NCBI GenBank assembly: GCA_902778895.1
Contig: CACYZF010000004.1
Coordinates: forward strand, 69,821 to 133,820
Reading direction: 5' to 3'
Origin: an uncultured bacterium
GTDB lineage: Bacteria > Verrucomicrobiota > Lentisphaeria > Victivallales > UBA1829
Length of the DNA: 64,000 nucleotides
The notes under the pieces were generated by a model, which worked only from the letters and a program-made list of their open reading frames with translations, was not told the DNA's origin and searched no databases. The position numbers were made by a program, and so were the translations under genes. Positions 33,679 to 50,634 of this stretch are shown here, in pieces. Each line of letters opens with the position of its first letter. Position 1 is the stretch's first letter.

Positions 33679-34236
33679 ATGAACGCGTCGAACCTGATTC
33701 TCATCAAGCTGGTCCTGGCGACGCCCTGGCTGATCTGGCTTTCGGTGTGTGATTGCAAACGGCATGAACTCCCGAACCGCCTGACATTCGGCGGAGCGGC
33801 AGTCATGGCCGCGGTCGCTCTCGCCGCGGGCATTGATTATCTGCTCGGGTCGCTCATCACGGCGTTTCTGTCCATGCTCTTCCTGCTGCTGCCGTTCTTT
33901 CTGCGTGCGGCCGGCGCGGGCGATGTGAAGATGCTGTTCGCGGCGGGGCTGACCGCCGGTCCTCCGGGCCCCGAAATGGTCAACTTGCTGGTTCTGATCT
34001 TCATGGTTTCGCTGGCCGGTCTGCTCCTGGCCGTGGTGATGCTGCTGATGAGGCGGGTGAACACGGCGCGTCTGAAGCATTATCTGCGCTGCCTGTTCGA
34101 TTTCCGGTACGACCGCGAGGCGGGACGGAAGGCGATGCCGCCGCCGGACACGGAGGCCTGCCGGGTGCCGTTCGGCGTGGCGATCGCGATCGGAGTGTGG
34201 AGCTATCTGCTGATGCAGTTCATCCATACGATTTGA
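33679..34236 (+). CDS. tadV: A24-family prepilin peptidase (TadV/CpaA type)
   Basis: Polytopic membrane protein. First catalytic Asp context is SVCDCKRHELPN, second is AAGAGDVKMLFAAG. Confidence 0.85.
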   Translation: MNASNLILIKLVLATPWLIWLSVCDCKRHELPNRLTFGGAAVMAAVALAAGIDYLLGSLITAFLSMLFLLLPFFLRAAGAGDVKMLFAAGLTAGPPGPEMVNLLVLIFMVSLAGLLLAVVMLLMRRVNTARLKHYLRCLFDFRYDREAGRKAMPPPDTEACRVPFGVAIAIGVWSYLLMQFIHTI

Positions 34237-34249
34237 ACGAGGTGCGGCA

Positions 34250-34915
34250 GTGGTCAAGCGAAAATCATTTCTGAGAGAACGCAAAGGCGCCGTCCTGCTG
34301 GAGTTCGTGCTCTGTTTCCCGATCCTGCTTGTGCTGTTCTTTTTCGCGATCCAGCTGGCGCAGATCATGATCACGTGGCAGGTGGTGCATTACGCCGCCT
34401 TCATGGGCGCGCGGTCGTCCATGGTCACCAACAATATCCAGCGTCAATCCCAGGCGGAGAAGGTCGTGAAGCGCATCCTCGCGGTCGTTTCCGCCTCGCC
34501 TGTCGCAAATGGCAAAGGCGGCAAGGACGACCGGACGAAAGACGAATACTGCAAGCTCGACGGCTGGGGCTATCTGCCCGACACGAAATATCTGGAGAAA
34601 CAGGTGTCCGTCGACATCCCGCTGGTGGACATCGACCCCTCCGGCGTGCGCTGCACGGTCAAGTTCAAGATGTTTCTGAACGTCCCGGTCGCGGGCCCTC
34701 TGATCGCGTTCTTCGCGAACCCGAACAAGAAGGAAAAGGACTGGCAGAAGAAGCTCGACAATCAGGCGTACGCCCTGAACCCCGCGCTGCTCGCGGACGA
34801 TCCGCAGACGATCGAGCCGGATAAAGACTTGAAGATCCCGTATATCGAACTCAGTTCCACGAGCGTGGTCAACATCCCGTACGGAACAAAAAAATACCCG
34901 CTGGACGTTTTCTGA
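34250..34915 (+). CDS. TadE-like pseudopilin
   Basis: GTG start. RERKG-AVLLEFVLCFPILLVLFFFAIQLA is the TadE N-terminal signature. Confidence 0.75.
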   Translation: MVKRKSFLRERKGAVLLEFVLCFPILLVLFFFAIQLAQIMITWQVVHYAAFMGARSSMVTNNIQRQSQAEKVVKRILAVVSASPVANGKGGKDDRTKDEYCKLDGWGYLPDTKYLEKQVSVDIPLVDIDPSGVRCTVKFKMFLNVPVAGPLIAFFANPNKKEKDWQKKLDNQAYALNPALLADDPQTIEPDKDLKIPYIELSSTSVVNIPYGTKKYPLDVF

Positions 34916-34917
34916 AC

Positions 34918-36663
34918 ATGACGAACACACTTCCGACAAGCGTATGGGGCGTATTCAAAGCCCGCAGCACCGAGCTGGCGAAGGGAAACTCCGGCGCGGC
35001 GCTCGCGATTACGCTCGCGTTCGTCATGCCGATTTACCTGATGGTGATCGGGATCTACGGCATCGGCGAAGTGGTGCGGAACAAGATCGAGATCCAGAAC
35101 GCGGCGGACGCGGCGGCATATTCCGCGGCGGTCGTGCAGGCGGACTACCTCAGCCGCATGGCGACGGTGAACAAGGCGATGGCCTGGACCTACGTGGACC
35201 TGCAGAAACGTTCGCTCGACCTGGCGATGGATACGTTCTGCGCTACGGTCTTCACCAATTTCTCCAAAGATTTAGCAATGTGCGTCTCGCAGAACAGCCC
35301 GTGCCACATGCATACGCCGGGTCTCAATTGGAACTGCGGAACTGACGAACTCGTCTATGACAGCGTTCTCAAATTCGCCGGAACGGGCGTCGGCCTCCCG
35401 CTTGTGGCAAAGGAGTTCAACGGACAGGGGATGCTGTCAAGATTCCTGCTCAACCAGACCTATCATATCGCCGTGGCGAACATCAAGGGGAAAGGCACCG
35501 TCAGCAATCTGCCGAAGGTGATGACATACAGCTACAACATCATCAAGATGACAAAGAAGCTCGTCAATCTGAGGGACGAATACCAGAAAAAGGTCAAGGA
35601 GACCGCCCAGCAGATCGCCATCGCGAACATGATGGAATGTAAGGACGATTATTATGTAAAAGTCCACATGGGCGACATCAATCTGAGCTTCCTCACCATG
35701 CCGGGGACCGACGAAAACGAACAGACTTTCATCGCGTTTGCCGACCCGACGCTGAAGAGTTTCAAGCCGAAGGACGTGTTCGGCCGGGGGACGGACGTCT
35801 GGGTGAAACAGAAATCGCCCGTCGGCTTCTGGCGCGTTTACAAGCAGCAGAAAAAAGTCCTGTATGCGGAATGGGACTGGTTTTGGACCAAGTGGCGTCA
35901 TGTTCAGATCCTGTGGTATCAGGCCCACCTGCCGCCTTTCGCGCGCGGCTCCGGCGGCTGGAAGCGCGGCCACCCAAAGATCAAGGGAACCGACTTTCCG
36001 CTCATCAAAGAGAATATGCCAATCGGCCTGGTCGTTACGCCCGCGATTCCGATCACGCTTCTGCCGACCTTCTTCGGCAAGAGCGGGACCATCACGGTCG
36101 CGATCGTGCGGAAAACGGCGAATCCGCTGGCGAAATTCGACGGTCTCTTCTCCAACGCACAGTCGCTGACCGCGTCCGGGATACTTTCCGCGTTCAATCC
36201 GAGCGTGGGGAACGGCAGCCGTCCCGAGTTCATGTGCGCCATCGCGACCGCCCGCGCGGGCTACAAGACATACAACAAGGACAAGGAAGCAAAGATGAAG
36301 AGCTCCGACTACAACGTCGGATATGTGAAGGAAAGCCGCGAAAAGGAATGGAACCTGGTGGAGACCGACTGGGACGGCGTGATGCTGCCCGTGAAGCACG
36401 CCTGGGACCAGTGCGCCGGGGTCGGGATGGCGCAGACATTTGTCCCGCTTCCCGGAAGCGGCAGCATCCTGAAAGACATCTTCACCGACCGGAAGGGCTG
36501 GGTCGATTCGAAGGGGAAAGCCGCCGACGAGAAAAAGCTGCCCGAATGGGATAAGCTGAAGCCGCCGGGGGGCCTGATCACCGAGGATAACAAGAACAGC
36601 GGCGGCAAGAACGCCGAACAGAAACTGGACTGGGACAAACTCCGTGACTACCTTGGACATTAA
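34918..36663 (+). CDS. TadG-like (Tad_N domain) pilus assembly protein
   Basis: GNSGAALAITLAFVMPIYLMVIGIYGIGEVVRNKIEIQNAADAAAYSAAV matches the TadG/Tad_N pattern. 581 aa. Confidence 0.7.
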   Translation: MTNTLPTSVWGVFKARSTELAKGNSGAALAITLAFVMPIYLMVIGIYGIGEVVRNKIEIQNAADAAAYSAAVVQADYLSRMATVNKAMAWTYVDLQKRSLDLAMDTFCATVFTNFSKDLAMCVSQNSPCHMHTPGLNWNCGTDELVYDSVLKFAGTGVGLPLVAKEFNGQGMLSRFLLNQTYHIAVANIKGKGTVSNLPKVMTYSYNIIKMTKKLVNLRDEYQKKVKETAQQIAIANMMECKDDYYVKVHMGDINLSFLTMPGTDENEQTFIAFADPTLKSFKPKDVFGRGTDVWVKQKSPVGFWRVYKQQKKVLYAEWDWFWTKWRHVQILWYQAHLPPFARGSGGWKRGHPKIKGTDFPLIKENMPIGLVVTPAIPITLLPTFFGKSGTITVAIVRKTANPLAKFDGLFSNAQSLTASGILSAFNPSVGNGSRPEFMCAIATARAGYKTYNKDKEAKMKSSDYNVGYVKESREKEWNLVETDWDGVMLPVKHAWDQCAGVGMAQTFVPLPGSGSILKDIFTDRKGWVDSKGKAADEKKLPEWDKLKPPGGLITEDNKNSGGKNAEQKLDWDKLRDYLGH

Positions 36664-37345
36664 GACGTTATTGAAATCCGGGCGGGGATCGGTCCTGATG
36701 GAATTCGTGCTGGTTCTGCCGGTTTATATCGCGGTCATGGGCGGCACCCTGTGGATCGGGATGAAGTCGCTGGACGCGATCAATCTGCGTTCGGCTGACC
36801 ACTGGTCGGTCTGGAGCGAGGGCAACCGGTTCCAAATGCGTACGCCCGCCATGGTCGCGCTGCGGGACATGTTCCCGCGTTCCACGCTGGCCACGACGAA
36901 CGCGGCGCGGCGTCTGGAGGCGGAACACAGCTATCTGCAGTTCATCGCGTCGAAGACCACGATCATGGAGACTCGTCCGGACTATATCTCGAACTGGATG
37001 GACATGCCGTACACGATGAGCGGCCAATCGAAATCGCCATGGCAAATCATCCCGGAGCTCTCGATGTCCTCGTCCCGCTTCGGCAACAAGTACACGCAGT
37101 GCATTGTCATGCGCACGAAGGCGTCCAAAACCGCGAAACGCCACTGGCATTCGAGCCTGATCGCCGACAGGGGCATCTGGAAATTCGAGGGAAACGAGGA
37201 CAAGTATCCCTCCAAGTGGGAACTGAAGCTGATGGACAAAATCAAATACAAGGACGACAAGAAGGAAGAAGAAAAGGAACCGAAGAAGATCGACTTCTAC
37301 GAACGCTATGACACATATGAAGACTGGAGCGAGCCGGAGAAATGA
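36644..37345 (+). CDS. TadE-like pseudopilin 2
   Basis: GRG-SVLMEFVLVLPVYIAVMGG. GTG start overlaps the previous gene by 20 nt, so the start is uncertain. Confidence 0.65.
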   Translation: MTTLDIKTLLKSGRGSVLMEFVLVLPVYIAVMGGTLWIGMKSLDAINLRSADHWSVWSEGNRFQMRTPAMVALRDMFPRSTLATTNAARRLEAEHSYLQFIASKTTIMETRPDYISNWMDMPYTMSGQSKSPWQIIPELSMSSSRFGNKYTQCIVMRTKASKTAKRHWHSSLIADRGIWKFEGNEDKYPSKWELKLMDKIKYKDDKKEEEKEPKKIDFYERYDTYEDWSEPEK

Positions 37346-37788
37346 AGCGTCTGATGCCGTTCTTTCTGGTCTTCCTGCTGGTCTTCCTTTGCGGCACCGG
37401 ATTTCTGATGCTGAAAAGCGTGACCGCGAAGCCGGAGCCGCCCCGTCCGCAACAGCGAATAACGGAGCCCGTCAAGGGCGTCCTTCCCGCGCTGAATCTG
37501 CAGGACGAATCGAAGACCGCGCCGGGGACGGACAGCTGGGAATTCGAGGGACAGGTCAACTCGAATTACATTTCGACCAGAACGAAGTTCAGCGCGGCGC
37601 TGCTGCATGACGGCTGGAAGCCGGAGCGGCAGATCACGCTGGACGACAAGCTGTCTCCGCGCGTCCTGCTGACGTTTCAGAAGGGCGACCTGGAACTGAC
37701 CTTGATGCTGTGGAAAATTGATACCGGTACGACCGGTTTTACGTATCGGAGGGATCGAATCATCAACCCCGGAGTGGAACTTCAATGA
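37342..37788 (+). CDS. signal-anchored protein, function unknown
   Basis: ATGA-coupled on both sides. N-terminal MKRLMPFFLVFLLVFLCGTGFLML. No recognisable motif. Confidence 0.5.
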   Translation: MKRLMPFFLVFLLVFLCGTGFLMLKSVTAKPEPPRPQQRITEPVKGVLPALNLQDESKTAPGTDSWEFEGQVNSNYISTRTKFSAALLHDGWKPERQITLDDKLSPRVLLTFQKGDLELTLMLWKIDTGTTGFTYRRDRIINPGVELQ

Positions 37789-38861
37789 ACGAAAAAGACG
37801 CATCGTTTCTTGTCCTGTTTCTGGCGCCCGTCAAGGACTATCTGGCGGACGACAAGGTCTCGGAAATCCTGATCAACGGCCCGAACCAGATCTATATCGA
37901 GCGCGGCGGCAAACTTGAGGAGACCGAGGCGAAATTCGCCAGCGAGGCGCAGCTGAAGGCCGCCGCCGTGAACATCGCGAAATCGGTGGACCGTCAGCTG
38001 GACGAGATGCACCCCGACCTGGACGCCCGTCTCCCGGACGGTTCCCGCGTCCACGCCACGATCCCGCCCATCAGCCGCTGCGGCACGATCATCTCCATCC
38101 GCAAGTTCAAAAAGGATATGCTTACGCTGGAAAAACTCGAGGGATTCGGCAGCGTGCCGCATGAGGGCGTGCTGCTCCTGAACGCCATCGTGAAGTTGAG
38201 AAAGAACACCATCGTCTCCGGCGGAACATCCTCCGGCAAGACGTCCGTCCTGAACGCACTGAGCGGGCTGATCCCGGACAAGGACCGCATCCTCGTGCTG
38301 GAAGACGCCAGCGAGCTTCAGCTTCAGCAGCGGCACTGCGTCTACTTCGAGACACGCAAGCCGGACAAGAACGGACAGGGCGAGTTCTCCATCCGCGACC
38401 TCGTGATCGCGTCCCTGCGTCTGCGTCCCGACCGCCTGGTCATCGGCGAAATCCGCGGCGGCGAGGCGCTCGACCTGCTGCAGGCGATGAACACCGGCCA
38501 CTCCGGCTCCATGTCGACCATCCACGCGAACACCCCGGTGGATGCCCTGAGCCGTATGGAAACATGCTCCATCATGAGCGGCATCGAAATGCCGCTGACC
38601 GCCATCCGCATGCAGGTGGCCTCCGCCATCAACTGCGTGGTTCACACCATGCGCCTGCCCGACGGTTCCCGCAAGATCGTGGAGATCGCCGAGATCCTGC
38701 CGCTGGAACACGGCGAATACCGCACGCGCACGCTGATGAAGTGGCACACGGATTCGCTCGCGCCGGACGGGACCGTCTCCGGACGCTTCATCCTCGGCGA
38801 AAAGCCTTCGTTCGCCGACGACGCGAAGATCATGGGCATCGAGCTTCCGGACTATCCATGA
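37785..38861 (+). CDS. CpaF/TadA/VirB11-family secretion ATPase (short form, no FHA)
   Basis: Walker A GGTSSGKTS. Asp box ILVLEDASEL. Walker B RPDRLVIGEIRGGEA. His box GHSGSMSTIHAN. Confidence 0.9.
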   Translation: MNEKDASFLVLFLAPVKDYLADDKVSEILINGPNQIYIERGGKLEETEAKFASEAQLKAAAVNIAKSVDRQLDEMHPDLDARLPDGSRVHATIPPISRCGTIISIRKFKKDMLTLEKLEGFGSVPHEGVLLLNAIVKLRKNTIVSGGTSSGKTSVLNALSGLIPDKDRILVLEDASELQLQQRHCVYFETRKPDKNGQGEFSIRDLVIASLRLRPDRLVIGEIRGGEALDLLQAMNTGHSGSMSTIHANTPVDALSRMETCSIMSGIEMPLTAIRMQVASAINCVVHTMRLPDGSRKIVEIAEILPLEHGEYRTRTLMKWHTDSLAPDGTVSGRFILGEKPSFADDAKIMGIELPDYP

Positions 38862-39757
38862 CGGGAAACGGGTCCGGCAGCGCATTTTTCTCCGGCGAAA
38901 TCGTCTGCGGCAGCGTTCTTCAGCAGCTTCTCCGCGTACGGGAAAACAGCCGGGAGATCTGGCTGGCGTACGATACCGGCCTCAAGACCCATGTCATCCT
39001 CAAATTTATCCGTGAGGATGATCGAGGCGCGGAGCATCTTCCCGAACTTGCGGATTTCCTTATGCGGACGAAAAGCCCGTCGCTGATCCGTGTTCTGGAA
39101 GCACCGCAAAAAGTTGCCGGATACATCGTCGAAAAACAGGAGTATGCCGTCGGCGGCTCGCTGACATCAAGACTAAAACACTCGGGCAGGCTTCCCCTCG
39201 CGCAGACCGTCTATGTCATGCGGGAGGTGCTTCTTGCATTACAGGAGCTCCATACGAACGGGATCATTCACCGCGACATCAAGCCCGGCAACATCCTGAT
39301 CGCGTCGGACGGCGAGATCAAGGTGGGGGATTTCGGGATCGCGCGTCCGGTGCGGTTTTCGGAGAAAGGCCCCGATGTCTTCGGCACGCCGTCCGCCATG
39401 TCGCCCGAACAGACGCTCGACACGACGAAAGTCGATTGCCGCACGGATTTCTTCAGCCTGTCGTCCGTGATATATGAACTCCTGACATGGCGTCCGCGAT
39501 TTCCGCACGGGACACTGCTGGAAACGGGTGCGCTTGTCAGGAAAAGCCGTCCGGAGGACCTGGTGCGGGATTTGCAGCCGTTTGCAACGACGGACCTGTG
39601 TCATCTGCTGGGCTGGATGGCGGAACCGGACCCGGTGAAGCGGCCCCCGACAGCCGGGATCATTCTGGAAGAGCTTGACAGGCTTCGGCTGCCCTGCGAG
39701 CCATTGTCAGGAGAGCGGAAAACGCCGGAACAGCAGAGCCCGCCGGAACGAGCTTGA
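38858..39757 (+). CDS. Hanks-type Ser/Thr protein kinase
   Basis: Start trimmed to MTGNG (ATGA overlap with the ATPase stop). VILKFI Lys, catalytic loop HRDIKPGNIL, DFGIA, GTPSAMSPE. Confidence 0.9.
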   Translation: MTGNGSGSAFFSGEIVCGSVLQQLLRVRENSREIWLAYDTGLKTHVILKFIREDDRGAEHLPELADFLMRTKSPSLIRVLEAPQKVAGYIVEKQEYAVGGSLTSRLKHSGRLPLAQTVYVMREVLLALQELHTNGIIHRDIKPGNILIASDGEIKVGDFGIARPVRFSEKGPDVFGTPSAMSPEQTLDTTKVDCRTDFFSLSSVIYELLTWRPRFPHGTLLETGALVRKSRPEDLVRDLQPFATTDLCHLLGWMAEPDPVKRPPTAGIILEELDRLRLPCEPLSGERKTPEQQSPPERA

Positions 39758-40534: not shown

Positions 40535-40725
40535 GGGATCGGCAGGGAAATGACGGTTACGATGCGCTGGTACATGGATACCACAGCCTTGCCGACCGTG
40601 CCGAACCCGCCGGAAAACAGTTTGTTGGAATAGACGGCCGCGGACGCTCCGAAAACGAGCGGAAGGATCGAACAGACGAGGAGCACGTATTCCAGCAGAA
40701 CGCCGTGTTTTTTCCGAATTCTCAT
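40531..40725 (-). CDS. flp: Flp-type prepilin 3 (divergent)
   Basis: MRIRKKHG-VLLEYVLLVCSILPLVFG. 64 aa. ATGA-coupled to the upstream FHA gene. Confidence 0.65.
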   Translation of the reverse strand: MRIRKKHGVLLEYVLLVCSILPLVFGASAAVYSNKLFSGGFGTVGKAVVSMYQRIVTVISLPIP

Positions 40726-43112
40726 AAATTCAGACTCCTGACCCAGTTGAAGATCGGATCGCCCGGGATGCCGTTTTTGATCACATAATCCTTGATCTCC
40801 ACCGCCTTCTTTTCATCCATCGGATCGTACGAGTAGACGAAGGTTTGCTGTTCCAGACGGAAATTACGCCATTCCTCGCCGAACGCCTGCATCTGCGCCG
40901 GGATTTCCGGTCCGGGCGGCGCGAAGAAGAAGTACGCGGTCTTCGCGAGGAAATACTGCCGGTTGTTCTTGTGGCGGGCAGCGATATTCAGACATGCCTG
41001 GAGAACGACTTCCCTCGTTTTCAGGATCGCCTGATAATAATCCCTTGTTTCTTCGATTTTACCATGGAGGATCCATTCGTTTTGCGGGAGATTGAGCCAG
41101 ACAAGCGCTTCGGCAACCATGCGATACATATCCTTGAGCCGAATGCACAGCGGGACATACTGGATATCAGGGATCAGGTCGGTCGCGTAAATGTTGTTTG
41201 TGGAATGGACCGTCTGTTGAAGGACCTCGTAGAAATAACGTTCTCCGAAGAGTTTTTCGTACTCCTCCGATATAACTCTTGATCCGACGGGGAAAACACT
41301 TGGAAGCGAGATCACCTGTTCGATCAAAGCCTCATTGGAGAACAGCACGATCTCTTCCGGGAGCTTGCCCAAAACCAGATTGTATGGCGCAAGCGTCTCC
41401 TGCAGACCCTGCCATTGGGTCCGGACGCGCATCTGAGCCTGAAGACGATCCTCCATGTGTTCCCGAAGTTTGAAAAGCTGTGGAATCTTGATGCATTCGT
41501 CCAAAGAAATCAGGCGTATGGTGCGAATGTCGTCCATGCGCAGGTCGAACAGCATTTGATCGTTTTCATCCAGCGCTTCGATGTTGTCCCGGATTGTCCC
41601 TATCCTGACGGACAGTTCCCGCATATAGATCCTGAGAATACCGGAAATGTTCTGATTTTCACGCTTCAGATAGTCGATAAAAGCGTCCATCTGCTTCAAA
41701 TCCCTGATAACGGACACGTTGTCCAAACTCGATTCGATCTCCTTCAGCATGGTATTGTCATGCTCCAGTTCCGTCAGCAAATGGAGAATTTCCTGATAAA
41801 GCGGTTTCAGATAGTCCGGAACCGCGCTTGTTTCGATTTCCCCGTTATGATCGAAATCTTCCGACAAGCCGTTTTTCAGTTCATCTATCAGTTTTTCCTT
41901 CACAGGCTTCATTTCTTTCCATTTTTCCTTCAGATTGGCAACTGTCGTGTCCAAAGTCGTCACCATATTGTGCATAGACACCAGGACATCCAGCAGATAC
42001 TTTTCATGTGCGACCTGATTCTGGATGACGATCGTCTCAGGATCCGCCTGATTCCATGCGTCCGGATCTTCAAGTCCAAGTTTTCCGTAACTTTCCGCCG
42101 CATGTTTCCATTTACTGTCTTTCAAATCGTTCCGGAACTCAAGAAGCGCCTTGTAGGAATTCTCATAGTTCGGGATATTGGTGGAATAATCGCGGTATTG
42201 TTTTTCATAGCGCTGGAACCCTTTGGAGTCCGGCATTTTGGTCAGAACGCGCTCAGCCGCGCCGTAATCGTTCTTCCTGAGATAAAAATCAATGACGTCG
42301 ATCACCGTTTCGGTTGCCGGAAGCGACATGTAGTAAAGCCCGAAGCAGCCCGCGGCAACGAACAGGGTCAGCACGAGAATCAAAATCTTTTTTCCGAAGT
42401 GGGTCCGTGTATGAACGACGTTCCGGTCGAGGAACGCATAATCGAAACAGGCGATGGAAATATCGTCCAAATCCATCAGCATGCGCTCCTGCCGCTTCAG
42501 TCTTTCCCCGTTGACGAACGTGCCGTTGGAACTGCTCAAATCCTTTAGCCAGGTCTCTCCGTTTTCGGCGATGCGGATCTCCGCATGGCGTCTGGAGACC
42601 ACGTCGGATTTCAGGACCAGGTCGTTGTCGGAGGCGGAACCGATCCGGAACGGACTCTTCTCCAGCCGGATTATTTCTCCGTCCTTGTCGCCGCCGTGTA
42701 CTTCCAGACGATGCACATCGCAGGGGATGCGTTCGGATTTGGACGTGATCCTGACAAAGACTTCGGAATCCCCGATGGAGGCCCGGTCGTTCTTTTTCAG
42801 GACGGCGGAGGAAACGCTTTCTCCATGGACGTGAATACGGTTGTTCTCGCACGCGGTCAGTTTCACGCCGTTCTGAACGACATGCAGTTTCGCATGGTGT
42901 TCTCCGCACGATTGGTCCGTCTCCGGTATGACCAGATCGTTATCCTGCGCCCGTCCGATGGTCAGCGTTTTGTCCGGATCGTTGATCAGGACCGTCTGAA
43001 ACAGTTTGCCGCGGCAACGGAATTCAAGAGAATAACCGACCGTCCGCCTCCGGCTCGTACGGGCGTTATCTTCCGAAGTATTCGAACTAGTTTTTGATTT
43101 TGAAAAAGCCAT
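40722..43112 (-). CDS. double-FHA, single-pass membrane protein with a large uncharacterised C-terminal region
   Basis: FHA1 is TIGRAQDNDLVIPE...HAKL...NRIHVHGE. FHA2 is FRIGSASDNDLVLKSDVVSRRHAEI...SSNGTFVNGERL. TM helix ILILVLTLFVAAGCFGLYYM. About 520 aa follow with no motif I recognise. Confidence 0.8.
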   Translation of the reverse strand: MAFSKSKTSSNTSEDNARTSRRRTVGYSLEFRCRGKLFQTVLINDPDKTLTIGRAQDNDLVIPETDQSCGEHHAKLHVVQNGVKLTACENNRIHVHGESVSSAVLKKNDRASIGDSEVFVRITSKSERIPCDVHRLEVHGGDKDGEIIRLEKSPFRIGSASDNDLVLKSDVVSRRHAEIRIAENGETWLKDLSSSNGTFVNGERLKRQERMLMDLDDISIACFDYAFLDRNVVHTRTHFGKKILILVLTLFVAAGCFGLYYMSLPATETVIDVIDFYLRKNDYGAAERVLTKMPDSKGFQRYEKQYRDYSTNIPNYENSYKALLEFRNDLKDSKWKHAAESYGKLGLEDPDAWNQADPETIVIQNQVAHEKYLLDVLVSMHNMVTTLDTTVANLKEKWKEMKPVKEKLIDELKNGLSEDFDHNGEIETSAVPDYLKPLYQEILHLLTELEHDNTMLKEIESSLDNVSVIRDLKQMDAFIDYLKRENQNISGILRIYMRELSVRIGTIRDNIEALDENDQMLFDLRMDDIRTIRLISLDECIKIPQLFKLREHMEDRLQAQMRVRTQWQGLQETLAPYNLVLGKLPEEIVLFSNEALIEQVISLPSVFPVGSRVISEEYEKLFGERYFYEVLQQTVHSTNNIYATDLIPDIQYVPLCIRLKDMYRMVAEALVWLNLPQNEWILHGKIEETRDYYQAILKTREVVLQACLNIAARHKNNRQYFLAKTAYFFFAPPGPEIPAQMQAFGEEWRNFRLEQQTFVYSYDPMDEKKAVEIKDYVIKNGIPGDPIFNWVRSLNL

Positions 43113-44590
43113 TATTCGTCAAGCGTCCAGATGTTTTGCATGATTCTGAGATGCCGATAGTCATCGGGCGACGGAAATTTTGAAAGACATATATTGACCA
43201 CATCCCTCATCATGAGCCAGTTTTCACTTTGTTCATAATGCTGGTATGCCAGACACGCCTGCGCGTACCAAAGTGCCTGCCGTTCCCGGAAATCCTGCAG
43301 AAGCCCCAGGGCGTCTTCCATCATTTCCTCATCGTTTGCCTTTCCTGCGAGGGAAAGCAGGAGAGCGAACTTCTGCTTGATCTCCGTCCAGTCGGTGATC
43401 GCGACATTGACCATCATTTTGGACAGCAGGGTGCGGTACAGTTCCGTTTTGGAAACGCCTTCCGGAATGGTCTCCGGGATTTCCCAGTAACTGTTCGCGG
43501 CATCCGGGGAAGCAACGAAACAGCCATAATTGGTCAGGACTTTTTCCGCGCGCCAGTAGTGCTGAACCGGGACTTCGCGCGTAAAAATGATCTCTTTGTC
43601 GTGGTAACGCAAATAGCTGACAAACCCCTGCCACTGGAAATCGTTGTCATTCCGTTTGTATCCCATGGTCTGATAAGGGATGCCGCAAGTCGAGATGGAA
43701 TAGAACTTGTCTTCCGGAAGCTTGAGGAATGTGAAGCCGTGATTCTCTTCCGCATCCTTCTTCCAGTCGCTGAAACTATCCTTGCGGGAAACGACAAAAC
43801 CATCGGGAACATCGTTCACCACAAGTTTCAGGTGGAACACGACATCCAGATGCTTGCCCAGCAAAGTCATCACCTCGCAGTTCGTTTCCGTTTTCTCGAC
43901 CTTTGTCTGGGAACACTCCGGATAATAGATCATGAAATTTCCCTTGGGCGGCAGCTCGATGCGGAATTCCCCGTCGTTGAAAACTCCGGTCACTTCACCC
44001 GGCCAGGTCACGGGATTTTCCAGCTCCAATTCGGAATAGAGGAAACCGCCTCCGATCACCGCAAGCAGCAGAATGACCGCAAAGGCAAACGTAAACTTCC
44101 TGCGGCTGGTCTGCTTCTGAGAAAAACGCCTCAGATCGTCAAGTTCCTCCTCGGAGGCGTAACGGGTCTTATCTTCTTTTTTTTCTCCGCTTTCCGCTCC
44201 GCCGTCGACCGTGCCGTCTTCCGTCGTCTCGTCGTCATCGGGTGAGAAAGGCGAAGACATCACCACCGGGATCGTACCGTCTTCTTCCTCGATGCTGAAA
44301 AACAGCTTCTTCCCGAGACGCACGGCCATTCCGGGCTTCAGTTCCGTCTCCATGCCGGGTTCCAGCTGTTTGTCGTCGACGAACACGGATTCGGCATAGG
44401 ATTTGAGGACAAGCGCGGAATCGGACTCCCGGACAAACAGGAATGCATGCTGAATCGCGATGTCCTCTCCGCCCGGACGGATTCCCGCCGTTTGCGATTT
44501 TCCGATCATGACCCCTTCGGCCGGCACGACGAAGGACCTGCCGGAGAGCTCGCCGCCTGTGAAGAGGATCTTGTAATATTTTGATTCCAT
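43112..44590 (-). CDS. FHA-domain single-pass membrane protein with an uncharacterised C-terminal domain
   Basis: N-terminal FHA-like domain (VMIGKSQTAGIRPGGEDIAIQHAFL...VFVDDKQL), acidic linker, TM helix FAFAVILLLAVIGGGFLY, then about 300 aa of unknown function. Confidence 0.7.
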   Translation of the reverse strand: MESKYYKILFTGGELSGRSFVVPAEGVMIGKSQTAGIRPGGEDIAIQHAFLFVRESDSALVLKSYAESVFVDDKQLEPGMETELKPGMAVRLGKKLFFSIEEEDGTIPVVMSSPFSPDDDETTEDGTVDGGAESGEKKEDKTRYASEEELDDLRRFSQKQTSRRKFTFAFAVILLLAVIGGGFLYSELELENPVTWPGEVTGVFNDGEFRIELPPKGNFMIYYPECSQTKVEKTETNCEVMTLLGKHLDVVFHLKLVVNDVPDGFVVSRKDSFSDWKKDAEENHGFTFLKLPEDKFYSISTCGIPYQTMGYKRNDNDFQWQGFVSYLRYHDKEIIFTREVPVQHYWRAEKVLTNYGCFVASPDAANSYWEIPETIPEGVSKTELYRTLLSKMMVNVAITDWTEIKQKFALLLSLAGKANDEEMMEDALGLLQDFRERQALWYAQACLAYQHYEQSENWLMMRDVVNICLSKFPSPDDYRHLRIMQNIWTLDE

Positions 44591-44604: not shown

Positions 44605-45510
44605 TCAGAACAAAGGAACGCCCGATTCTTTCATTTTCAGAAAGACCGGCGTAAGGATGATAATGAACACTGCCGGAAGGATGAAAAGCGCCATCGGAAG
44701 CAACATCAGGGACGGCGCACGCTGAGCTTTGCATTCGGCGATCGAGAACCGCAGTTTGCGCATTTCCTCGCTCTGGATATCCATCGTATCCGCCAGGGAC
44801 GCGCCGAGTTCCGTGCCCATCACCACGGCCGACGCGAACGATGTGAACTCCTTGATCTGAATCCGGTCCGCCATGTTCTGGAGCGCGGCCGTGCGGATGA
44901 CGCCGAGTTCCATTTCCCTGAGCATGGTCCGGTATTCATCCGTCAGCGGGCCTTTGACCCCCAAATTCACATAGAACCGGATCGCCGCGGTGAAATCCAG
45001 ACCGCCGCGCATCGCGGATGAAATCAGGTCGATGGAAAAAGGAATCGCCTGAAGGATTTTCGTCTTGCGTTCCTGGACCAGATTGCCAACCGCGATGCCG
45101 GGAAGGAACCAGCCGATGAACACGCCGATCAGCGCCGCGACCGGGATGGCTCCCCGCTGATCCGGAGGGACCACCATCCATGTCCCCATGGCAAACGCCG
45201 CGCCCATCGCCAAAACCAGAAAAATCCGGGCTTCATAGACGAACGCGGGAGCGAGGTCAAGGCCCGCATACTGAAGCTTTTTCCGCATTGCGCGGCATTG
45301 CGCGGGGAAGAGCTTATAGATCAGACTGCCGAACCCGAGCGCGTCCATGATGGCGACGGGTGTGGCGCAGAGCCGGAAGACCGATGGCGTTTCATCATCC
45401 TCTTCCTTCTTTTTGCGCGAGGCGGGAGTGTTGTCCGTGAAGAGAACATATCCCATGACCGGCAGAAGCACCACCAGGAACGTTATCAGATAAATGACCG
45501 TACGATTCAT
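44605..45510 (-). CDS. tadC: TadC-like platform protein (T2SS-F domain)
   Basis: AIPFSIDLISSAMRGGLDFTAAI and C-terminal TM helices typical of the T2SSF family. Confidence 0.8.
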   Translation of the reverse strand: MNRTVIYLITFLVVLLPVMGYVLFTDNTPASRKKKEEDDETPSVFRLCATPVAIMDALGFGSLIYKLFPAQCRAMRKKLQYAGLDLAPAFVYEARIFLVLAMGAAFAMGTWMVVPPDQRGAIPVAALIGVFIGWFLPGIAVGNLVQERKTKILQAIPFSIDLISSAMRGGLDFTAAIRFYVNLGVKGPLTDEYRTMLREMELGVIRTAALQNMADRIQIKEFTSFASAVVMGTELGASLADTMDIQSEEMRKLRFSIAECKAQRAPSLMLLPMALFILPAVFIIILTPVFLKMKESGVPLF

Positions 45511-45511
45511 A

Positions 45512-46408
45512 TTACACCTTCACATCCACGATTGCACGGATCACGAAGTATCCGATCGTTTCCAGCGTCAGCATGACCCCGATGGCGCACCATCCGATCA
45601 GCGTTTTCACCATCGGCATCATCAGATCGTTGTTGATGACGAACAGGAGCACGAACGCCAGAAGCGGCGCGAGAGACATGGCAAGCGCTTCGAACCGCCC
45701 CTGCGCCGTCAGCGCCTTCAGCTTCTGTTGAAACTCAATTCGGCCGCGGATCGTTTGCGTAATGCGCTGGAGGACATCCGCCAGGCTTCCGCCGGACTGC
45801 AACGTCAGACGGATCGAAATGATCAGGAGCTGAAGGTCTTCGCACGGCAGGCGGTCGTACATGCGCTGAAGCGCATCCGGCAGCTCCACGCCGAGACGGT
45901 ATTCCTTCAGCACGACGTCGAGTTCTTCTTTCAGGGTACCCTCGCTCCGGCGGGCGAAGACTTCCAGCGCCTGGGGCAAGGCCTGTCCTGCGCGCAGGCC
46001 GCTGGTCAATCCCATGGAGAGATCAAGGATGCTGCCTTCGAAGTCGAGGGCGCGTTTCTTCACTTTCCGGGAGTAATACAGGAGCGGAGCCGCGTACCCG
46101 ATGCCGAGCGCGATCAAACTGACGGGAACCAGCACATAAAACATGTAAACCTTGCAGAAAAGCAGGATCGAAACGATGACCGCCATCAGGAGAATCCCGA
46201 TGGAGAACTGGATCTGCAGCAGGACCTGGGGAGAAACGAAATACCCGATGTCGTTGCGATGTCCGCCGAGGTTCCTGTCTTTGACTTTATGGTCGAAATG
46301 CTCCATGCCGACCTGCTGGACCAGGCCGACGGACAGAAAGATCAGGAGAAACACCGCGGCGAAGACCAGCAGGTAAATCCCGTATTTGCTCAGGAATGAC
46401 GAATTCAT
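45512..46408 (-). CDS. tadB: TadB-like platform protein (T2SS-F domain)
   Basis: LDLSMGLTSGLRAGQALPQALEVFARR. N- and C-terminal TM helices. Confidence 0.8.
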   Translation of the reverse strand: MNSSFLSKYGIYLLVFAAVFLLIFLSVGLVQQVGMEHFDHKVKDRNLGGHRNDIGYFVSPQVLLQIQFSIGILLMAVIVSILLFCKVYMFYVLVPVSLIALGIGYAAPLLYYSRKVKKRALDFEGSILDLSMGLTSGLRAGQALPQALEVFARRSEGTLKEELDVVLKEYRLGVELPDALQRMYDRLPCEDLQLLIISIRLTLQSGGSLADVLQRITQTIRGRIEFQQKLKALTAQGRFEALAMSLAPLLAFVLLFVINNDLMMPMVKTLIGWCAIGVMLTLETIGYFVIRAIVDVKV

Positions 46409-46414
46409 GGTGAC

Positions 46415-48124
46415 TCAGTTCTCCGGTACGAATACGGACATGTCCAGCTGAAGGTCGCCGGACTGCCGGAGTTCATCGATGAAACGCGGGATGTTGCCGG
46501 TCGCCGTATGATGTCCGAGGACATGGAATTTTTCATCGAATCCCTCCTGCTCGAACGTGAAGATGTCCTGCATCAGGATGATGCCGTTTTCGCGGCCCGT
46601 GACCTCGCTGATCTTTACGATCTTGCGGGATCCGTCCGGCAGGCGCGTCTGCTGAACGATCAGGTGGATCGCCGATGCGATCTGTTCCCGGATCGCGGCG
46701 GACGGCAGTTCGAATCCTGCCATCATGACCATATTTTCCAGGCGGGACAGCGCGTCGCGCGGCGTATTGGCATGGCAGGTCGTCATGGAGCCGTCGTGGC
46801 CCGTGTTCATCGCCTGAAGCATATCCAGCGCTTCAGGGCCGCGGCATTCCCCGACGATGATCCGGTCGGGACGCATGCGCAGCGTGTTGATGACGAGGTC
46901 GCGGATCGTGATCCGCCCCTGTCCTTCCACGTTGGCGGGACGAGCCTCAAGGCGGCAGAGGTTCTCATGCGTAAGCTTCAGTTCTGCCGAGTCTTCGACC
47001 GTGATGATGCGTTCCTTTTCGGGGATGAACAGCGAAAGGATGTTCAGGAGCGTCGTCTTGCCGGATCCCGTGCCGCCGGAGACCAGGATATTTCTGCGGG
47101 CGCGGACCGCCTCCTTCAGAAAAAGCGTCATGGCGTGCGTCAGGCTTCCGAACTTCTCCAGGTCGTCCGAGGTCAGCTTCTTCGACGGGAATTTGCGGAT
47201 CGTGACTAGGGAACCGTCGAGCGCGAGCGGGGGAATGACCGCGTTCACGCGGGAACCGTCCTTAAGTCGGGCGTCGACCATCGGGGACGCCGCGTCGATA
47301 TGACGTCCCAGCGGCTCCACGATTCGCTGGATGATCGACTGCAGATGCGCCTCGCTATGGAATTTGGACGGAGTCCGGTACTGCAGACCTTTGCTTTCGA
47401 TGAAAATGTGCTCCGGACCGTTGATCATGATCTCGGAAATGGACGCATCGCGCAGAAGCGGGGAAAGAGGACCGAGGCCGATCAGATTGTCCATCAGCGT
47501 TTGTCTGAGCAGGTCGATGTTTACTTCCGGGGGGATTTCGTGACGGATTTCACGGAGAACCTGATCCACCGCGCTTTCCACCTGCGGACGCATGGAAGCG
47601 TTCGAAAGGTTGTTCTGCGTTTCGTTGTTCACATTGAGCAGTTCCAGAACACGTGTCTGGACACGCTTCGACAGCTGCATCATTTTTTCGGTGAAGAGGC
47701 TCTGCTGTTCCTTCTGCGCCGAATAGATGGGAAGGGTGTGTCCTGATCCGGGTATGGAATCCGGGAGCGGACCCGACGGCATCGAGGCAGAAGAGGAAGC
47801 ATTGTTCCGCAGTGAAACCGCCATGTCAGTCGCGGCTGCCCCCGAACTCGGCTGGACCATGAACTCGAAATCGGAAATGCTCAGGACGTCGCCTGCGATC
47901 AGCTCCGTCTTCTCCTTGACGGGAACGCCGTTTATCCGCGTCCCCGCGTGGCTTTCCAGGTCGCGGACGAACACCTTGCCGTCCTGTTCCGTGATCTCGG
48001 CATGGCGGCGCGACACATGCTTGTCCGGGATTCGGATGTCGGCGTCCTCGTGCCGGCCGATGATCAGACAGCAGCCGGTAGGAAGTTCGATGGAGCGTTT
48101 TTCGTTTTTGAATATAAGCTTCAT
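46415..48124 (-). CDS. cpaF: FHA-domain / CpaF (TadA) ATPase fusion
   Basis: Start trimmed to MKLIFKNEK. FHA is LIIGRHEDADIRIPDKHVSRRHAEI...HAGTRINGV. ATPase has Walker A GGTGSGKTT, IITVEDSAEL, RPDRIIVGECRGPEA and GHDGSMTTCHAN. Confidence 0.9.
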   Translation of the reverse strand: MKLIFKNEKRSIELPTGCCLIIGRHEDADIRIPDKHVSRRHAEITEQDGKVFVRDLESHAGTRINGVPVKEKTELIAGDVLSISDFEFMVQPSSGAAATDMAVSLRNNASSSASMPSGPLPDSIPGSGHTLPIYSAQKEQQSLFTEKMMQLSKRVQTRVLELLNVNNETQNNLSNASMRPQVESAVDQVLREIRHEIPPEVNIDLLRQTLMDNLIGLGPLSPLLRDASISEIMINGPEHIFIESKGLQYRTPSKFHSEAHLQSIIQRIVEPLGRHIDAASPMVDARLKDGSRVNAVIPPLALDGSLVTIRKFPSKKLTSDDLEKFGSLTHAMTLFLKEAVRARRNILVSGGTGSGKTTLLNILSLFIPEKERIITVEDSAELKLTHENLCRLEARPANVEGQGRITIRDLVINTLRMRPDRIIVGECRGPEALDMLQAMNTGHDGSMTTCHANTPRDALSRLENMVMMAGFELPSAAIREQIASAIHLIVQQTRLPDGSRKIVKISEVTGRENGIILMQDIFTFEQEGFDEKFHVLGHHTATGNIPRFIDELRQSGDLQLDMSVFVPEN

Positions 48125-48131
48125 GGACAGA

Positions 48132-49802
48132 TTACCACGTGAACATTCTTTCAAACCACGTTTTCTGTTCGTTTTCCTGGACTTTGAGATTTTCCGCATT
48201 GACCCGTTCGGAAACCTCCTGCTCCAGCGTGGCGTTTTCTTCGGACGGACGCGTCTCCATCTTAAAGTTCTGATCCATCAGTTCCGGCGACACCAGGATC
48301 AGCATCTGGAGTTCTTCGCCCTTGTCTTCTTCGGACGACGCGAACCAGTTGATAACCGGAATATGCCGGAGGAACGCATAACCGGACGGTCCTTCATGAG
48401 AAAAAGTCAGCTCCTTCTGTCCCGCGATGACGGCTGTTTTTCCGAGCGGACAGATCAGCGTCGTCTTGGTTTTGCTCTTGCTCTGGACATAGTCGTCGCC
48501 GTCCCGGACCGGAGGCAGACTCCGTTCCAGATCCAGATTCAGCTTGACCGTATTGTCTTCCTGAAGGAATGCCTGGGCCTTGTATTTCAGTCCGTACTCG
48601 ATCTCCTTCATGTCGGCGGTATCCCGTCCGTACACCTTGACCTGGCGCGTGCCGCCGTTTTCATACGTGGATTCGTCGCCGTTGTTCGTGAGCGTGATGT
48701 GTCCCGCGTCGCGGAAATCGGCGATCCCGTTCTGTCCGAAGAACACCAGAGCCCCCTTCAGATTCGTTTCGAGCGTAATCGAGCCGCCTGCATGCTGGCT
48801 GCCATGGCTGTCGATCGCGTCCTTTGCGCCGCCGTACAGCGCCTTGAACCAGCCAACGACGTCCCACGTCAGGACCGTGCCGTCCGCATTGGCGTTTCCA
48901 AGACGTTCCAGCTGTTTTCTAGTCACGCCGACGAAGACGACTCCGAGGTCGACCTGGGATGGCACGATTCTCAAGTCGGTTTTGAGGCTGGCATTGTTGC
49001 CGTTCCACTCCGGATCCAGCCAGCGTTGCGCCGAGAGGATGGATTCGACCGTTTTAATGCCGTCTTCGGAGTACAGATATCCACGCACGGTCAGGACGGT
49101 CCCGGTAAGGTTCATGGACAGCTTGCCGGGTGCTTCCGGACCGGATTGTTCCTCCACGGGGAATCCGGCGTCCGTCAGCTGTTTTTTCAAATCGGCGATC
49201 AGTTTCGTATCCGGGACAAAAGCAACGTAGCTGTTGCATCTGCTTTCATAGGACTGCAGGATGCGGCGGAAATAATCCCAGTGGACGGGCTGCGTAATGA
49301 TGCCGCGGAGAACAAGCCCCCCGTCGTACATCTGCAGGGTGACTTCCGGAAGCTCCTCCAGAAGACGACTCATTTCCTGATACGTCTGAAGCGTCGAGTT
49401 ATATACCGTGATATGAAAACTCTTCTCGATGCCTCCGGCATGGACCGTGATGACGGCACGGCCGGGCGAAACCCCGGACACCTCGAACGTGTTGGCGTTG
49501 ACATGCTCGATCTTGACGTTGGACGAATCCGATTTGCAGGATTCGATGGTGAACGGCATGCTCAGTACGCGTTTTTCCCCGACGGTGATGGAGATCTGTT
49601 CCTGCATCGGATCGTTCCCGTTTTCGTTCTGCGAACCGAGCGCCTGAGTGATCGCCTTCACGATATCTTCCTGAGATACCTGAACTTCGTTTGCCTGGGA
49701 CTGACCCGGGGCGCCGGACGGCTGCTGAGCCGTCTGGCCCATGCCGGGAAGTGTCAGAAGAATGCCTGCCAGCAGAAGGAATGCTGTCGTAATTCTTTTC
49801 AT
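48132..49802 (-). CDS. cpaC: secretin (CpaC/RcpA type)
   Basis: Signal peptide. C-terminal secretin block GKTAVIAGQKELTFSHEGPSGYAFLRHIPVINWFASS...LILVSPELM. Confidence 0.85.
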   Translation of the reverse strand: MKRITTAFLLLAGILLTLPGMGQTAQQPSGAPGQSQANEVQVSQEDIVKAITQALGSQNENGNDPMQEQISITVGEKRVLSMPFTIESCKSDSSNVKIEHVNANTFEVSGVSPGRAVITVHAGGIEKSFHITVYNSTLQTYQEMSRLLEELPEVTLQMYDGGLVLRGIITQPVHWDYFRRILQSYESRCNSYVAFVPDTKLIADLKKQLTDAGFPVEEQSGPEAPGKLSMNLTGTVLTVRGYLYSEDGIKTVESILSAQRWLDPEWNGNNASLKTDLRIVPSQVDLGVVFVGVTRKQLERLGNANADGTVLTWDVVGWFKALYGGAKDAIDSHGSQHAGGSITLETNLKGALVFFGQNGIADFRDAGHITLTNNGDESTYENGGTRQVKVYGRDTADMKEIEYGLKYKAQAFLQEDNTVKLNLDLERSLPPVRDGDDYVQSKSKTKTTLICPLGKTAVIAGQKELTFSHEGPSGYAFLRHIPVINWFASSEEDKGEELQMLILVSPELMDQNFKMETRPSEENATLEQEVSERVNAENLKVQENEQKTWFERMFTW

Positions 49803-49815
49803 GGTTTACCGCCGT

Positions 49816-50634
49816 TTATTTCGTGGAGTTTGCAGTTTCGTTCGAGAGCAGCGCCGTATCCAGGTCGGAACGCACGGCTTCGAACGTTTTCGAGTTCACG
49901 GCCCCGATTTCCGAACGATTCCGTGCGGACGGATCGTTTCTTCTGCGGAGAATCGGGAAAAGTTCCGCTTCATGCTGTGCCGCCAGCAGGATTGTCGCCT
50001 GCCGGGGAGGAAGGGATACGTAGATCGTGGCGGTCGCACTGCCCGGCTCGCGGAAAAGGCCGTTGCTGTTATCGAGCCCGATCACCTCAATGCAGGGGAA
50101 CAGGATAACGGTTTCGCGTTCCTCCTTCACGTCCGCCTTCATAGCCGCTTCCGGATCCTTGAGCAGCTCTTCCGAGGTCGCTTTCGGGTGTTCGACGTTG
50201 GTGTGTGCATAAAGTGCCGCGATCGCTATTTCGTCCTGCGGACGCAGCATTTTTACAAGGGTCGGATCGGAAAACGTCACCGGGACCAGCCATTGGCCGG
50301 TGGTGACGCAGTCCGCCAGGGAGATGTTCAGCTGAATGTCATCGAACATGACGTAGCTGCCGCGTTTGATCGCACGCGGGATCTTCTGGCCGTAGGTCAG
50401 GCTGACGCTGTCCCAGAGAATCGCGGATTGCGGGACCGCCGATTCCGGCAGGTTTTTGAACGAGCACGCGCCCGGCATGAGCTCTTCTCCCGCTTCAAGA
50501 TCGCGGGCTGCGACCACAACGGATATCTGTGGCTCCTGTTCGGTGTCCTGGTTTTTGACAAGGACGTTGCTCACCATGTAAACGGCTGCAAGTCCCAGGA
50601 GGACGGCTACGATCAGCGGAATGACATTCTTCAT
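49816..50634 (-). CDS. cpaB: CpaB/RcpC-like pilus assembly protein (SAF domain)
   Basis: N-terminal anchor IPLIVAVLLGLAAVYMV. VVVAARDLEAGEEL SAF-type motif. GAGG RBS. Confidence 0.8.
   Translation of the reverse strand: MKNVIPLIVAVLLGLAAVYMVSNVLVKNQDTEQEPQISVVVAARDLEAGEELMPGACSFKNLPESAVPQSAILWDSVSLTYGQKIPRAIKRGSYVMFDDIQLNISLADCVTTGQWLVPVTFSDPTLVKMLRPQDEIAIAALYAHTNVEHPKATSEELLKDPEAAMKADVKEERETVILFPCIEVIGLDNSNGLFREPGSATATIYVSLPPRQATILLAAQHEAELFPILRRRNDPSARNRSEIGAVNSKTFEAVRSDLDTALLSNETANSTK

Follow-up and report, generated by a model that had tools for sequence, protein, structure and literature searches.

In a 64,000-nt stretch of contig CACYZF010000004.1 from an uncultured Victivallales bacterium (this whole stretch is hereafter the window), a Tad pilus locus that encodes a canonical FHA-headed CpaF motor also encodes a second, shorter secretion ATPase, the 358-amino acid (aa) product of a + strand gene at 37785-38861 that runs into a gene for a Hanks-type Ser/Thr kinase. 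From the open reading frames of the window and from Pfam, NCBIfam, and BLASTP comparisons of its proteins, we identify the gene product as a CpaF-type ATPase and not a VirB11, and predict it to be a catalytically competent, hexameric-type member of the CpaF family reduced to the NTD2-CTD core. The reading toward which we lean, and which we regard as modestly probable, is that it works as a second, auxiliary ATPase in a Tad machine that is Kil-like and regulated by phosphorylation. Because the locus has only one TadB/TadC pair, the short ATPase would either share that single platform or act on the FHA-CpaF hexamer, and the kinase/phosphatase state would select which ATPase engages, the FHA-tethered long one or the FHA-less short one. 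A preliminary description of this DNA had proposed a second, FHA-less secretion ATPase with intact motifs, additional to the FHA-CpaF of the same Tad locus, and that proposal is borne out here.

The short ATPase (Pfam T2SSE 4e-52) most closely resembles CpaF in both sequence and predicted fold. Against proteins of solved structure, it matched Caulobacter CpaF at 1.6e-86, archaeal GspE at 3e-32, VirB11 at 1e-29, and PilT at 3e-09, and an AlphaFold model (mean pLDDT 74) based on 20 orthologues recovered CpaF first in Foldseek (8rjf, TM 0.74), followed by FlaI, VirB11, and PilT. By BLASTP it is 48% identical over 340 aa to the FHA-CpaF of its own locus, and it is 49% identical to the third CpaF of the genome, found on contig C6. 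Several NCBIfam models gave scores short of their cut-offs: 300.7 bits vs 373.15 for the actinobacterial TadA model TIGR03819 (TadA family conjugal transfer-associated ATPase), 202.8 vs 249.95 for the VirB11 model TIGR02788, 197.1 vs 304.55 for the TrbB model TIGR02782, and 57.6 vs 319.1 for the PilT/PilU model TIGR01420.

The catalytic apparatus is intact and the protein is under strong constraint. In an alignment of 20 orthologous short ATPases, 56-87% identical to the window protein, we find invariance of the Walker A motif G-x-T-S-S-G-K-T (K152, T153), the Asp box E-D-x-x-E-L-Q-L (E173, D174, E177), the arginine finger R212 together with D216, the Walker B motif R-P-D-R...G-E (E222), and the His box N-T-G-H...H-A-N (H239, H247). 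The central loop that faces the platform also keeps its glycines, reading N-G-Q-G where Caulobacter CpaF has E-G-S-G (role from PMC11300603). The four ATPase boxes called in the preliminary description are therefore present, and the inactivating changes that it suggested looking for were not found in the catalytic residues of these 20 sequences. Comparison of the window with three related loci (L001, L002, and L020) gives 82-87% identity for the short ATPase, 56-68% for TadB and TadC, 36-42% for the FHA proteins, and about 40% for the kinase.

In phylogenies, the short ATPases form a deep lineage of their own. A 40-row tree (IQ-TREE, LG+C20) rooted on five plasmid VirB11/TrbB sequences places 21 short sequences together as a clade (98/99), with a stem 0.69 substitutions per site long, while the long FHA-CpaFs of the phylum group with the CpaFs of Arthrobacter, Rhizobium, and Pseudosulfitobacter (83/88) and a 93/90 branch separates VirB11/TrbB from the short clade. 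A second tree, a quick search on 59 rows, recovers a canonical CpaF clade (support 100) made up of the FHA-CpaFs of the phylum and references from Alphaproteobacteria, Betaproteobacteria, Actinomycetota, and Chloroflexota, and this clade leaves out the short ATPases. They join instead one FHA-CpaF representative and the Archangiaceae ATPases with short N-termini (support 94), with other N-terminally short CpaF-like lineages near the base (Bradymonadales, Planctomycetaceae, and metagenomic representatives), in a deep branching order that is unsure given the long branches and the quick search. The trees thus indicate that the short gene is not a recent truncated copy of the neighboring motor and belongs to an older, noncanonical assemblage. 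The top matches in the representative library were proteins in which two to four CpaF-like ATPase cores follow one another in tandem, predicted to be covalently linked multi-ATPase chains: P0121 (1156 aa), P0122 (1605 aa), P0123-P0126, and P0128.

These results bear directly on whether the short ATPase could be a conjugative VirB11/TrbB ATPase of a type IV secretion system, unrelated to pili, or else a decaying duplicate of the locus CpaF. Its length is VirB11-like and its layout is two-domain, as such an origin would have it, yet we consider the idea exceedingly improbable: the protein scores under the VirB11 and TrbB cut-offs and lies across the 93/90 branch from those families, no VirB/Trb genes were seen in the window, the orthologues are 82-87% identical where other proteins of the locus have dropped to 36-68%, the catalytic residues are all invariant, and the sequence is not nested in the long-CpaF lineage of the locus. 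We regard VirB11 identity and pseudogene status as excluded. The earlier label "CpaF/VirB11-type" accordingly holds in its CpaF half, given the best sequence and fold matches, and fails in its VirB11 half.

What sets the short ATPase apart is the part that it lacks. It aligns nearly without gaps to residues 145-490 of the 501 residues of Caulobacter CpaF, such that a Caulobacter number equals the short-ATPase number plus 135, and it is without the disordered region (NTD0), the three-helix bundle (NTD1), and the FHA domain. In this mapping, for which residue roles were taken from PMC11300603 and PMC12019362, the arginine finger R347 corresponds to R212, the Walker B E357 to E222, the central loop E331-G-S-G to N196-G-Q-G, and the Loop-8 D208 to D73 of the window protein, while the hinge glycines G147 and G149 are replaced by F12 and A14. 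The FHA-less character claimed in the preliminary description is thus correct, though the loss of the three-helix bundle went unremarked there. The absent N-terminus is not a start-codon artefact, because at most 21 codons are open upstream of the start (a 379-aa frame) and in 19 of 20 orthologues the start lies 3-7 residues ahead of a shared S-F/Y-L-x-L-F-L-x-P-V motif; many of them also have a GGAG-type ribosome-binding motif upstream of the ATG. Consistent with this, just two short helices precede the NTD sheet in the AlphaFold model.

In Caulobacter, the minimum CpaF architecture has been given as 3HB-NTD-CAD, with the three-helix bundle predicted to contact the CpaG/H platform (PMC12019362), and the short ATPase falls outside this minimum. 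Deletion of the bundle abolishes function in both Caulobacter CpaF and FlaI (PMC12019362, PMC11300603), and a Caulobacter CpaF lacking residues 1-146 assembles in vitro and fails to support function in vivo (PMC11300603). Judged by its predicted architecture, the short ATPase is the natural equivalent of that 1-146 truncation. We considered whether the 148-aa protein encoded just upstream might be a detached three-helix bundle and rejected the idea, as this protein has a hydrophobic signal- or anchor-like N-terminus and no family match. Some members of the short clade carry an N-terminal extension of 130-185 residues placed directly on NTD2 (L011:8615-10078 of G158; P0129, P0130); that of the L011 orthologue, about 130 residues and beta-rich, has no Pfam FHA match at 1e-3. 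Nearby representatives at 53-56% identity (P0132-P0134, P0138, P0139) do carry Pfam FHA domains, a hint that the short clade descended from an FHA-fused form.

To describe how widely the short clade occurs, we surveyed 201 genomes sampled across the GTDB phylum, taking as short-clade orthologues those with at least 55% identity, most of which have open frames of 344-422 aa; the genomes are related, so that the counts are descriptive and overstate independence. A CpaF-type match was present in 90 genomes, with long CpaF forms only in 61 and a short-clade orthologue in 29. By these matches, the short clade occurs in Lentisphaeria/Victivallales and in other lineages of the same phylum, and it accompanies canonical FHA-CpaF: a long CpaF is also present in at least 28 of the 29 short-clade genomes, as a rule on the same contig at a distance of 5-15 kb. 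Paired FHA membrane proteins go with it in most genomes, as homologues of the 796-aa FHA protein of the window locus were found in 27 genomes, 25 of which belong to the 29 with the short clade. A wider contig search gave at least three short-clade loci among 80 loci; the matches listed were mostly generic CpaFs, so that the clade is undersampled outside the phylum.

The occurrence of the gene is patchy at close range. The two other genomes of the window genus (G151, G199) have neither the short ATPase nor the 796-aa FHA protein, copies from genomes of another family (G002, G013, G022, G040, G115, G136) are 85-87% identical to that of the window, and the tree of short ATPases departs from taxonomy, with G194, from elsewhere in the phylum, closer than G184, from the same order. 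For these three reasons, the locus looks horizontally mobile and patchily inherited. Elsewhere in the window genome, contig C6 carries a second Tad-type locus (C6:39192-44626), consisting of an FHA-CpaF 45% identical to the long motor of the window together with an FHA protein, and neither a short ATPase nor a nearby kinase was found there. Contig C8 encodes a T2SSE-family ATPase (383-aa frame) that is not CpaF-like by tblastn and lies about 5 kb from an open reading frame with an FHA domain (C8:221432-222250, C8:226852-227508). In G160, a 55-residue fragment that is 64% identical to the short-ATPase N-terminus (L008:5826-5990) is found 3 kb upstream of the full gene and may represent a partial duplication.

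One version of the auxiliary-ATPase reading, offered in the preliminary description beside an alternative-substrate role, is that the short ATPase is a dedicated retraction motor, acting as PilT does while FHA-CpaF acts as PilB, with the bifunctional CpaF split in two. PilT-type ATPases are likewise minimal two-domain proteins and extension ATPases carry extra N-terminal domains; the short ATPase, moreover, occurs with a long CpaF and never with a second platform, and it keeps its catalytic residues and central-loop glycines. Still, the comparison, like the alternative-substrate role, is one of pure analogy: similarity to PilT is at the level of the superfamily only (57.6 bits against 319.1), and no computed result bears on direction. 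Retraction in Caulobacter is promoted by the disordered N-terminal region of CpaF (PMC11300603), which the short ATPase lacks. Overall, we view a dedicated retraction role as unlikely.

Within the window, the genes of the locus form two converging operons, with the tail of the + strand operon, ending in the ATPase and the kinase, facing the - strand operon that encodes FHA-CpaF. The + strand operon runs from an A24 prepilin peptidase (33679-34236; Pfam Peptidase_A24 2.5e-13) through a TadE-like gene (34250-34915; Pfam TadE 1.2e-09), a TadG-like gene (34918-36663; Pfam Tad 1.9e-06), a second TadE-like gene (36644-37345; Pfam TadE 1.9e-04), and the gene for the 148-aa protein with a hydrophobic N-terminal segment (37342-37788) to the short ATPase and a small soluble Hanks-type kinase of 299 aa (38858-39757; Pfam Pkinase 1.5e-31). 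The 148-aa protein has no family match in Pfam or NCBIfam; L001, L002, and L020 have it upstream of their short ATPases as well, and L006 has a weak counterpart there. On the - strand, the operon is headed by a CpaB-like SAF-domain protein (49816-50634; Pfam SAF 9.6e-05), followed by a secretin (48132-49802; Pfam Secretin 4.6e-10), the canonical long motor FHA-CpaF (46415-48199, 594 aa as longest open reading frame; Pfam T2SSE 3.7e-63 and FHA 6e-18), TadB-like (45512-46408) and TadC-like (44605-45510) genes (Pfam T2SSF, 8.7e-16 and 6.3e-14 for the pair), the paired FHA-headed proteins of 492 and 796 aa (40722-44590; Pfam FHA 3.2e-27 and a weak Yop-YscD_cpl match), and a 275-aa protein. The 796-aa protein has two FHA stretches and the 492-aa protein is FHA-like. 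The longest FHA-CpaF frame (start 48199) overlaps the end of the secretin frame (48132) by 68 nt, and its true start may be further downstream. The kinase gene, for its part, overlaps the 3' end of the convergent 275-aa gene by 51 bp at its own 3' end (39707-39757).

The preliminary description had the 358-aa ATPase and the 299-aa kinase joined by an ATGA overlap and together closing a pilin/pseudopilin operon, and each of these features is present: both frames and their Pfam domains, the overlap at 38858-38861, and the position of the two genes at the end of the + strand operon after the peptidase, TadE, and TadG-like genes. The junction reads CC-ATGA-CG, with the ATPase stop TGA (38859-38861) overlapping the kinase ATG (38858), and it is kept in all five close relatives (the window, L001, L002, L020, and L029). 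However, the ATGA coupling is not special to this pair, because the two preceding junctions, between TadE and the 148-aa gene (37342) and between the 148-aa gene and the ATPase (37785), are ATGA overlaps as well. The overlap is a trait of the whole operon tail and is uninformative on ATPase:kinase stoichiometry, and the "fixed stoichiometry" read from it earlier was an over-reading. The kinase start at 38858 is backed by homology, as conservation with relatives begins at residues 1-10. A longer kinase frame (ATG 38564, 397 aa) was rejected, since the 98 residues that it adds are read from ATPase-coding sequence in a different frame, and conservation in relatives is confined to the part from 38858 onward.

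The window kinase scores well above the Pkinase cut-off (110.2 bits vs 31.7) and keeps the catalytic V-I-L-K lysine and the H-R-D-I-K-P-G-N, D-F-G, and APE-like S-P-E motifs. The Gly-rich loop GxGxxG is absent from all five small kinases, with R-V-R-E-N-S-R-E-I-W in its place in the window protein, and one small-kinase orthologue has D-L-G instead of D-F-G. These small proteins end with the kinase domain and have no C-terminal sensor or transmembrane part. The kinases of more distant loci are 544-830 aa long and have a canonical G-x-G-G-M-G loop (the large kinases of L003, L004, L005, and L007). From its motifs, activity of the window kinase is plausible but uncertain. There is no PP2C gene in the window locus, and the single PP2C of the genome is on contig C2. 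A defence-system reading of these genes was rejected, as the PADLOC matches (PD-T4-6, mad6) were generic kinase-domain matches without cut-offs, and the ATPase, the 148-aa protein, and the 275-aa protein had no meaningful PADLOC match.

The link between the short ATPase and Ser/Thr signalling that the preliminary description drew from a single overlap is real and considerably wider. We examined 24 loci (the window, L001-L020, L029, L030, and L032), detecting kinases and PP2C genes with Pfam and home-built hidden Markov models, as tblastn with the window kinase missed degenerate or partial ones (e.g. upstream in L016). In 20 of the 24, a kinase, PP2C, or FHA gene adjoins the short ATPase or sits one gene away; as predicted from these gene assignments, then, the short ATPase is almost always flanked by Ser/Thr signalling genes (Hanks kinase, PP2C, FHA). 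For comparison, the 12 kinases in the 3.2 Mb of the window genome would put a kinase within 4 kb of about 3% of its genes. The link is kept across at least five gene orders. A small kinase lies directly downstream via the ATGA junction in five loci (the window, L001, L002, L020, and L029), PP2C directly upstream and a large kinase of 785-830 aa directly downstream in L003 and L007, a kinase directly upstream and PP2C downstream in L010, and a PP2C-fusion protein and then a kinase downstream in L011 and L030. One or two kinases are found at 1-3 kb in L004 and L005, PP2C and a partial kinase-like gene directly upstream in L015, L016, L017, L019, and L032, and an FHA protein or FHA-sigma54 activator directly adjacent in L012, L013, and L014. 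No kinase, PP2C, or FHA gene was found by the short ATPase in L006, L008, or L018, and L009 is too short to judge. The gene directly downstream in L012 (L012:7054-8895, - strand) encodes an FHA/sigma-54 activator/HTH_8 regulator, tying the same module to transcriptional control.

Most of these loci are also Tad loci. TadB/TadC, peptidase, or pseudopilin genes provide the context in 18 of 23 informative loci, which answers the concern, raised with the first description, that the gene might occur elsewhere without tad genes. The short gene ends a peptidase/TadE/TadG-like operon in nine loci (the window, L001-L004, L006, L007, L020, and L029), an arrangement that could fit a motor for an alternative step, one powering the assembly or priming of a TadE/TadG-like tip complex while FHA-CpaF polymerises the major Flp pilin. 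We find this very unlikely, as in nine other loci the short gene comes behind those for the long CpaF, TadB, TadC, and the FHA pair, so that the pseudopilin link is not conserved, and no precedent for such a motor is known to us.

The same neighborhoods invite a different proposal, that the short ATPase serves signalling or regulation and does not drive a filament, being part of an autonomous ATPase-kinase(-phosphatase) module recruited secondarily to Tad loci. It has lost the platform-contacting three-helix bundle and the hinge, and the genes around it are chiefly for kinases, PP2C, and FHA proteins and not for the platform; some orthologous loci are without tad genes, as are Archangiaceae relatives with a kinase at 3-4 kb. 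In an uncultured Bradymonadales bacterium (L036:9962-13187), a 366-aa N-terminally short CpaF-like ATPase lies 83 nt before the gene for a 680-aa kinase-domain protein (Pfam 1.4e-11); the pair is flanked by genes for an Obg GTPase and a MoaA-like radical SAM protein, and the surrounding 10 kb is free of tad genes. On the other hand, neither the catalytic residues nor the central pore loop vary, as would be expected of a working mechano-enzyme; most of the informative loci are Tad loci, and the gene keeps close company with the long CpaF and the FHA pair. Myxococcota are also kinase-rich, such that finding a kinase a few kb off counts for little in that group. We therefore judge a purely signalling role to be rather unlikely, though a serious rival to the reading that we favor, and hold the same doubt over its more detailed form, in which the ATPase would be a kinase substrate, scaffold, or nucleotide-state sensor working on the FHA proteins or FHA-CpaF and not on TadB/TadC.

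Returning to the auxiliary second ATPase that we favor, several observations weigh against it. A conventional motor role is not assured, because the three-helix bundle is absent and the hinge glycines are replaced, and the equivalent of the Loop-8 D208 is Asn in most of the short clade. The activity of the small kinases is made uncertain by the missing Gly-rich loop and by the single D-L-G variant. Four or five loci have no tad genes within 9-10 kb (L005, L008, L018, L030, and partly L010), and the distant N-terminally short relatives in Bradymonadales and Archangiaceae adjoin kinases without tad genes, so that the ATPase-kinase unit might be autonomous. Finally, the survey counts were made over related genomes, which makes the co-occurrence appear more independent than it is.

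Among characterized systems, the closest counterpart is CpaF/TadA of Caulobacter (PDB 8rjf, 8rkd, 9e24), with which the short ATPase shares its best sequence and fold match, the ATPase boxes, the arginine finger, the central-loop glycines, and a tad locus. It differs in lacking the disordered N-terminus, NTD1, and the hinge glycines, in falling outside the canonical clade, and in being present on top of a canonical CpaF, whereas Tad pili have been described as single-motor systems in which how one CpaF both extends and retracts is unresolved (PMC12019362, PMC11300603). The Tad-like contact-killing apparatus Kil of Myxococcus xanthus likewise combines an FHA-fused CpaF-type motor with several more FHA proteins; a phospho-signalling input has been proposed for it with the enzymes not identified, and it has been described with "a single ATPase" and no kinase reported in its clusters (PMC8460266, PMC12075869). 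The window locus differs in having two CpaF-type ATPases and a built-in Hanks kinase, and the likeness implies no predatory role for a gut Victivallales bacterium. Extra TadA copies are also found in Bdellovibrio bacteriovorus, which like the window bacterium combines a Tad machine with multiple TadA/CpaF paralogues. There, tadA2 and tadA3 have loci of their own, consisting of a duplicated rcpA-tadA module and an isolated copy; tadA2 is dispensable, and the function of the extra copies is not known (bioRxiv 10.64898/2026.07.08.737194). Neither coupling to a kinase nor a missing three-helix bundle is reported for them. Searching the literature for a second CpaF, cpaF2, or tadA2, we found only separate tad loci (Sinorhizobium) and these Bdellovibrio paralogues, and neither the short clade nor its kinase link.

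Two further comparisons concern how such a machine might be run. The type VI secretion system of Pseudomonas aeruginosa is controlled by a threonine-phosphorylation pathway comprising the kinase PpkA, the PP2C phosphatase PppA, and Fha1 (cited in PMC8460266). The loci described here similarly bring a Hanks kinase, PP2C, and FHA readers into the cluster of an envelope nanomachine, where they presumably gate assembly, although here the machine is Tad and the window locus has a kinase without PP2C, that kinase being truncated and lacking the Gly-rich loop. The PilB/PilT pair of type IVa pili offers a parallel for the two ATPases themselves, as both cases involve paralogous hexameric-type ATPases of which one has extra N-terminal domains and the other is minimal; the short ATPase, though, is a relative of CpaF, and any division of labor here is putative. 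Combining the two, one may imagine a two-motor Tad in which the bundle-less CpaF paralogue is the retraction motor and a kinase/PP2C/FHA switch picks the motor that works on the single platform. This is speculative and we doubt it, but if true it would be a convergent reinvention of the PilB/PilT division of labor under phosphothreonine control.

In conclusion, these loci provide a conserved natural case of a Tad machine with two CpaF-type ATPases, one of them FHA-headed and the other resembling the nonfunctional 1-146 deletion. Two ATPases on one platform would allow a direct test of the roles of the three-helix bundle and the N-terminal region, and the built-in kinase, PP2C, and FHA genes are candidate enzymes for a signalling step that has only been guessed at for Kil. 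The carriers are Victivallales of the gut and rumen, and in the gut the machine may thus matter for adhesion or for contact between cells.

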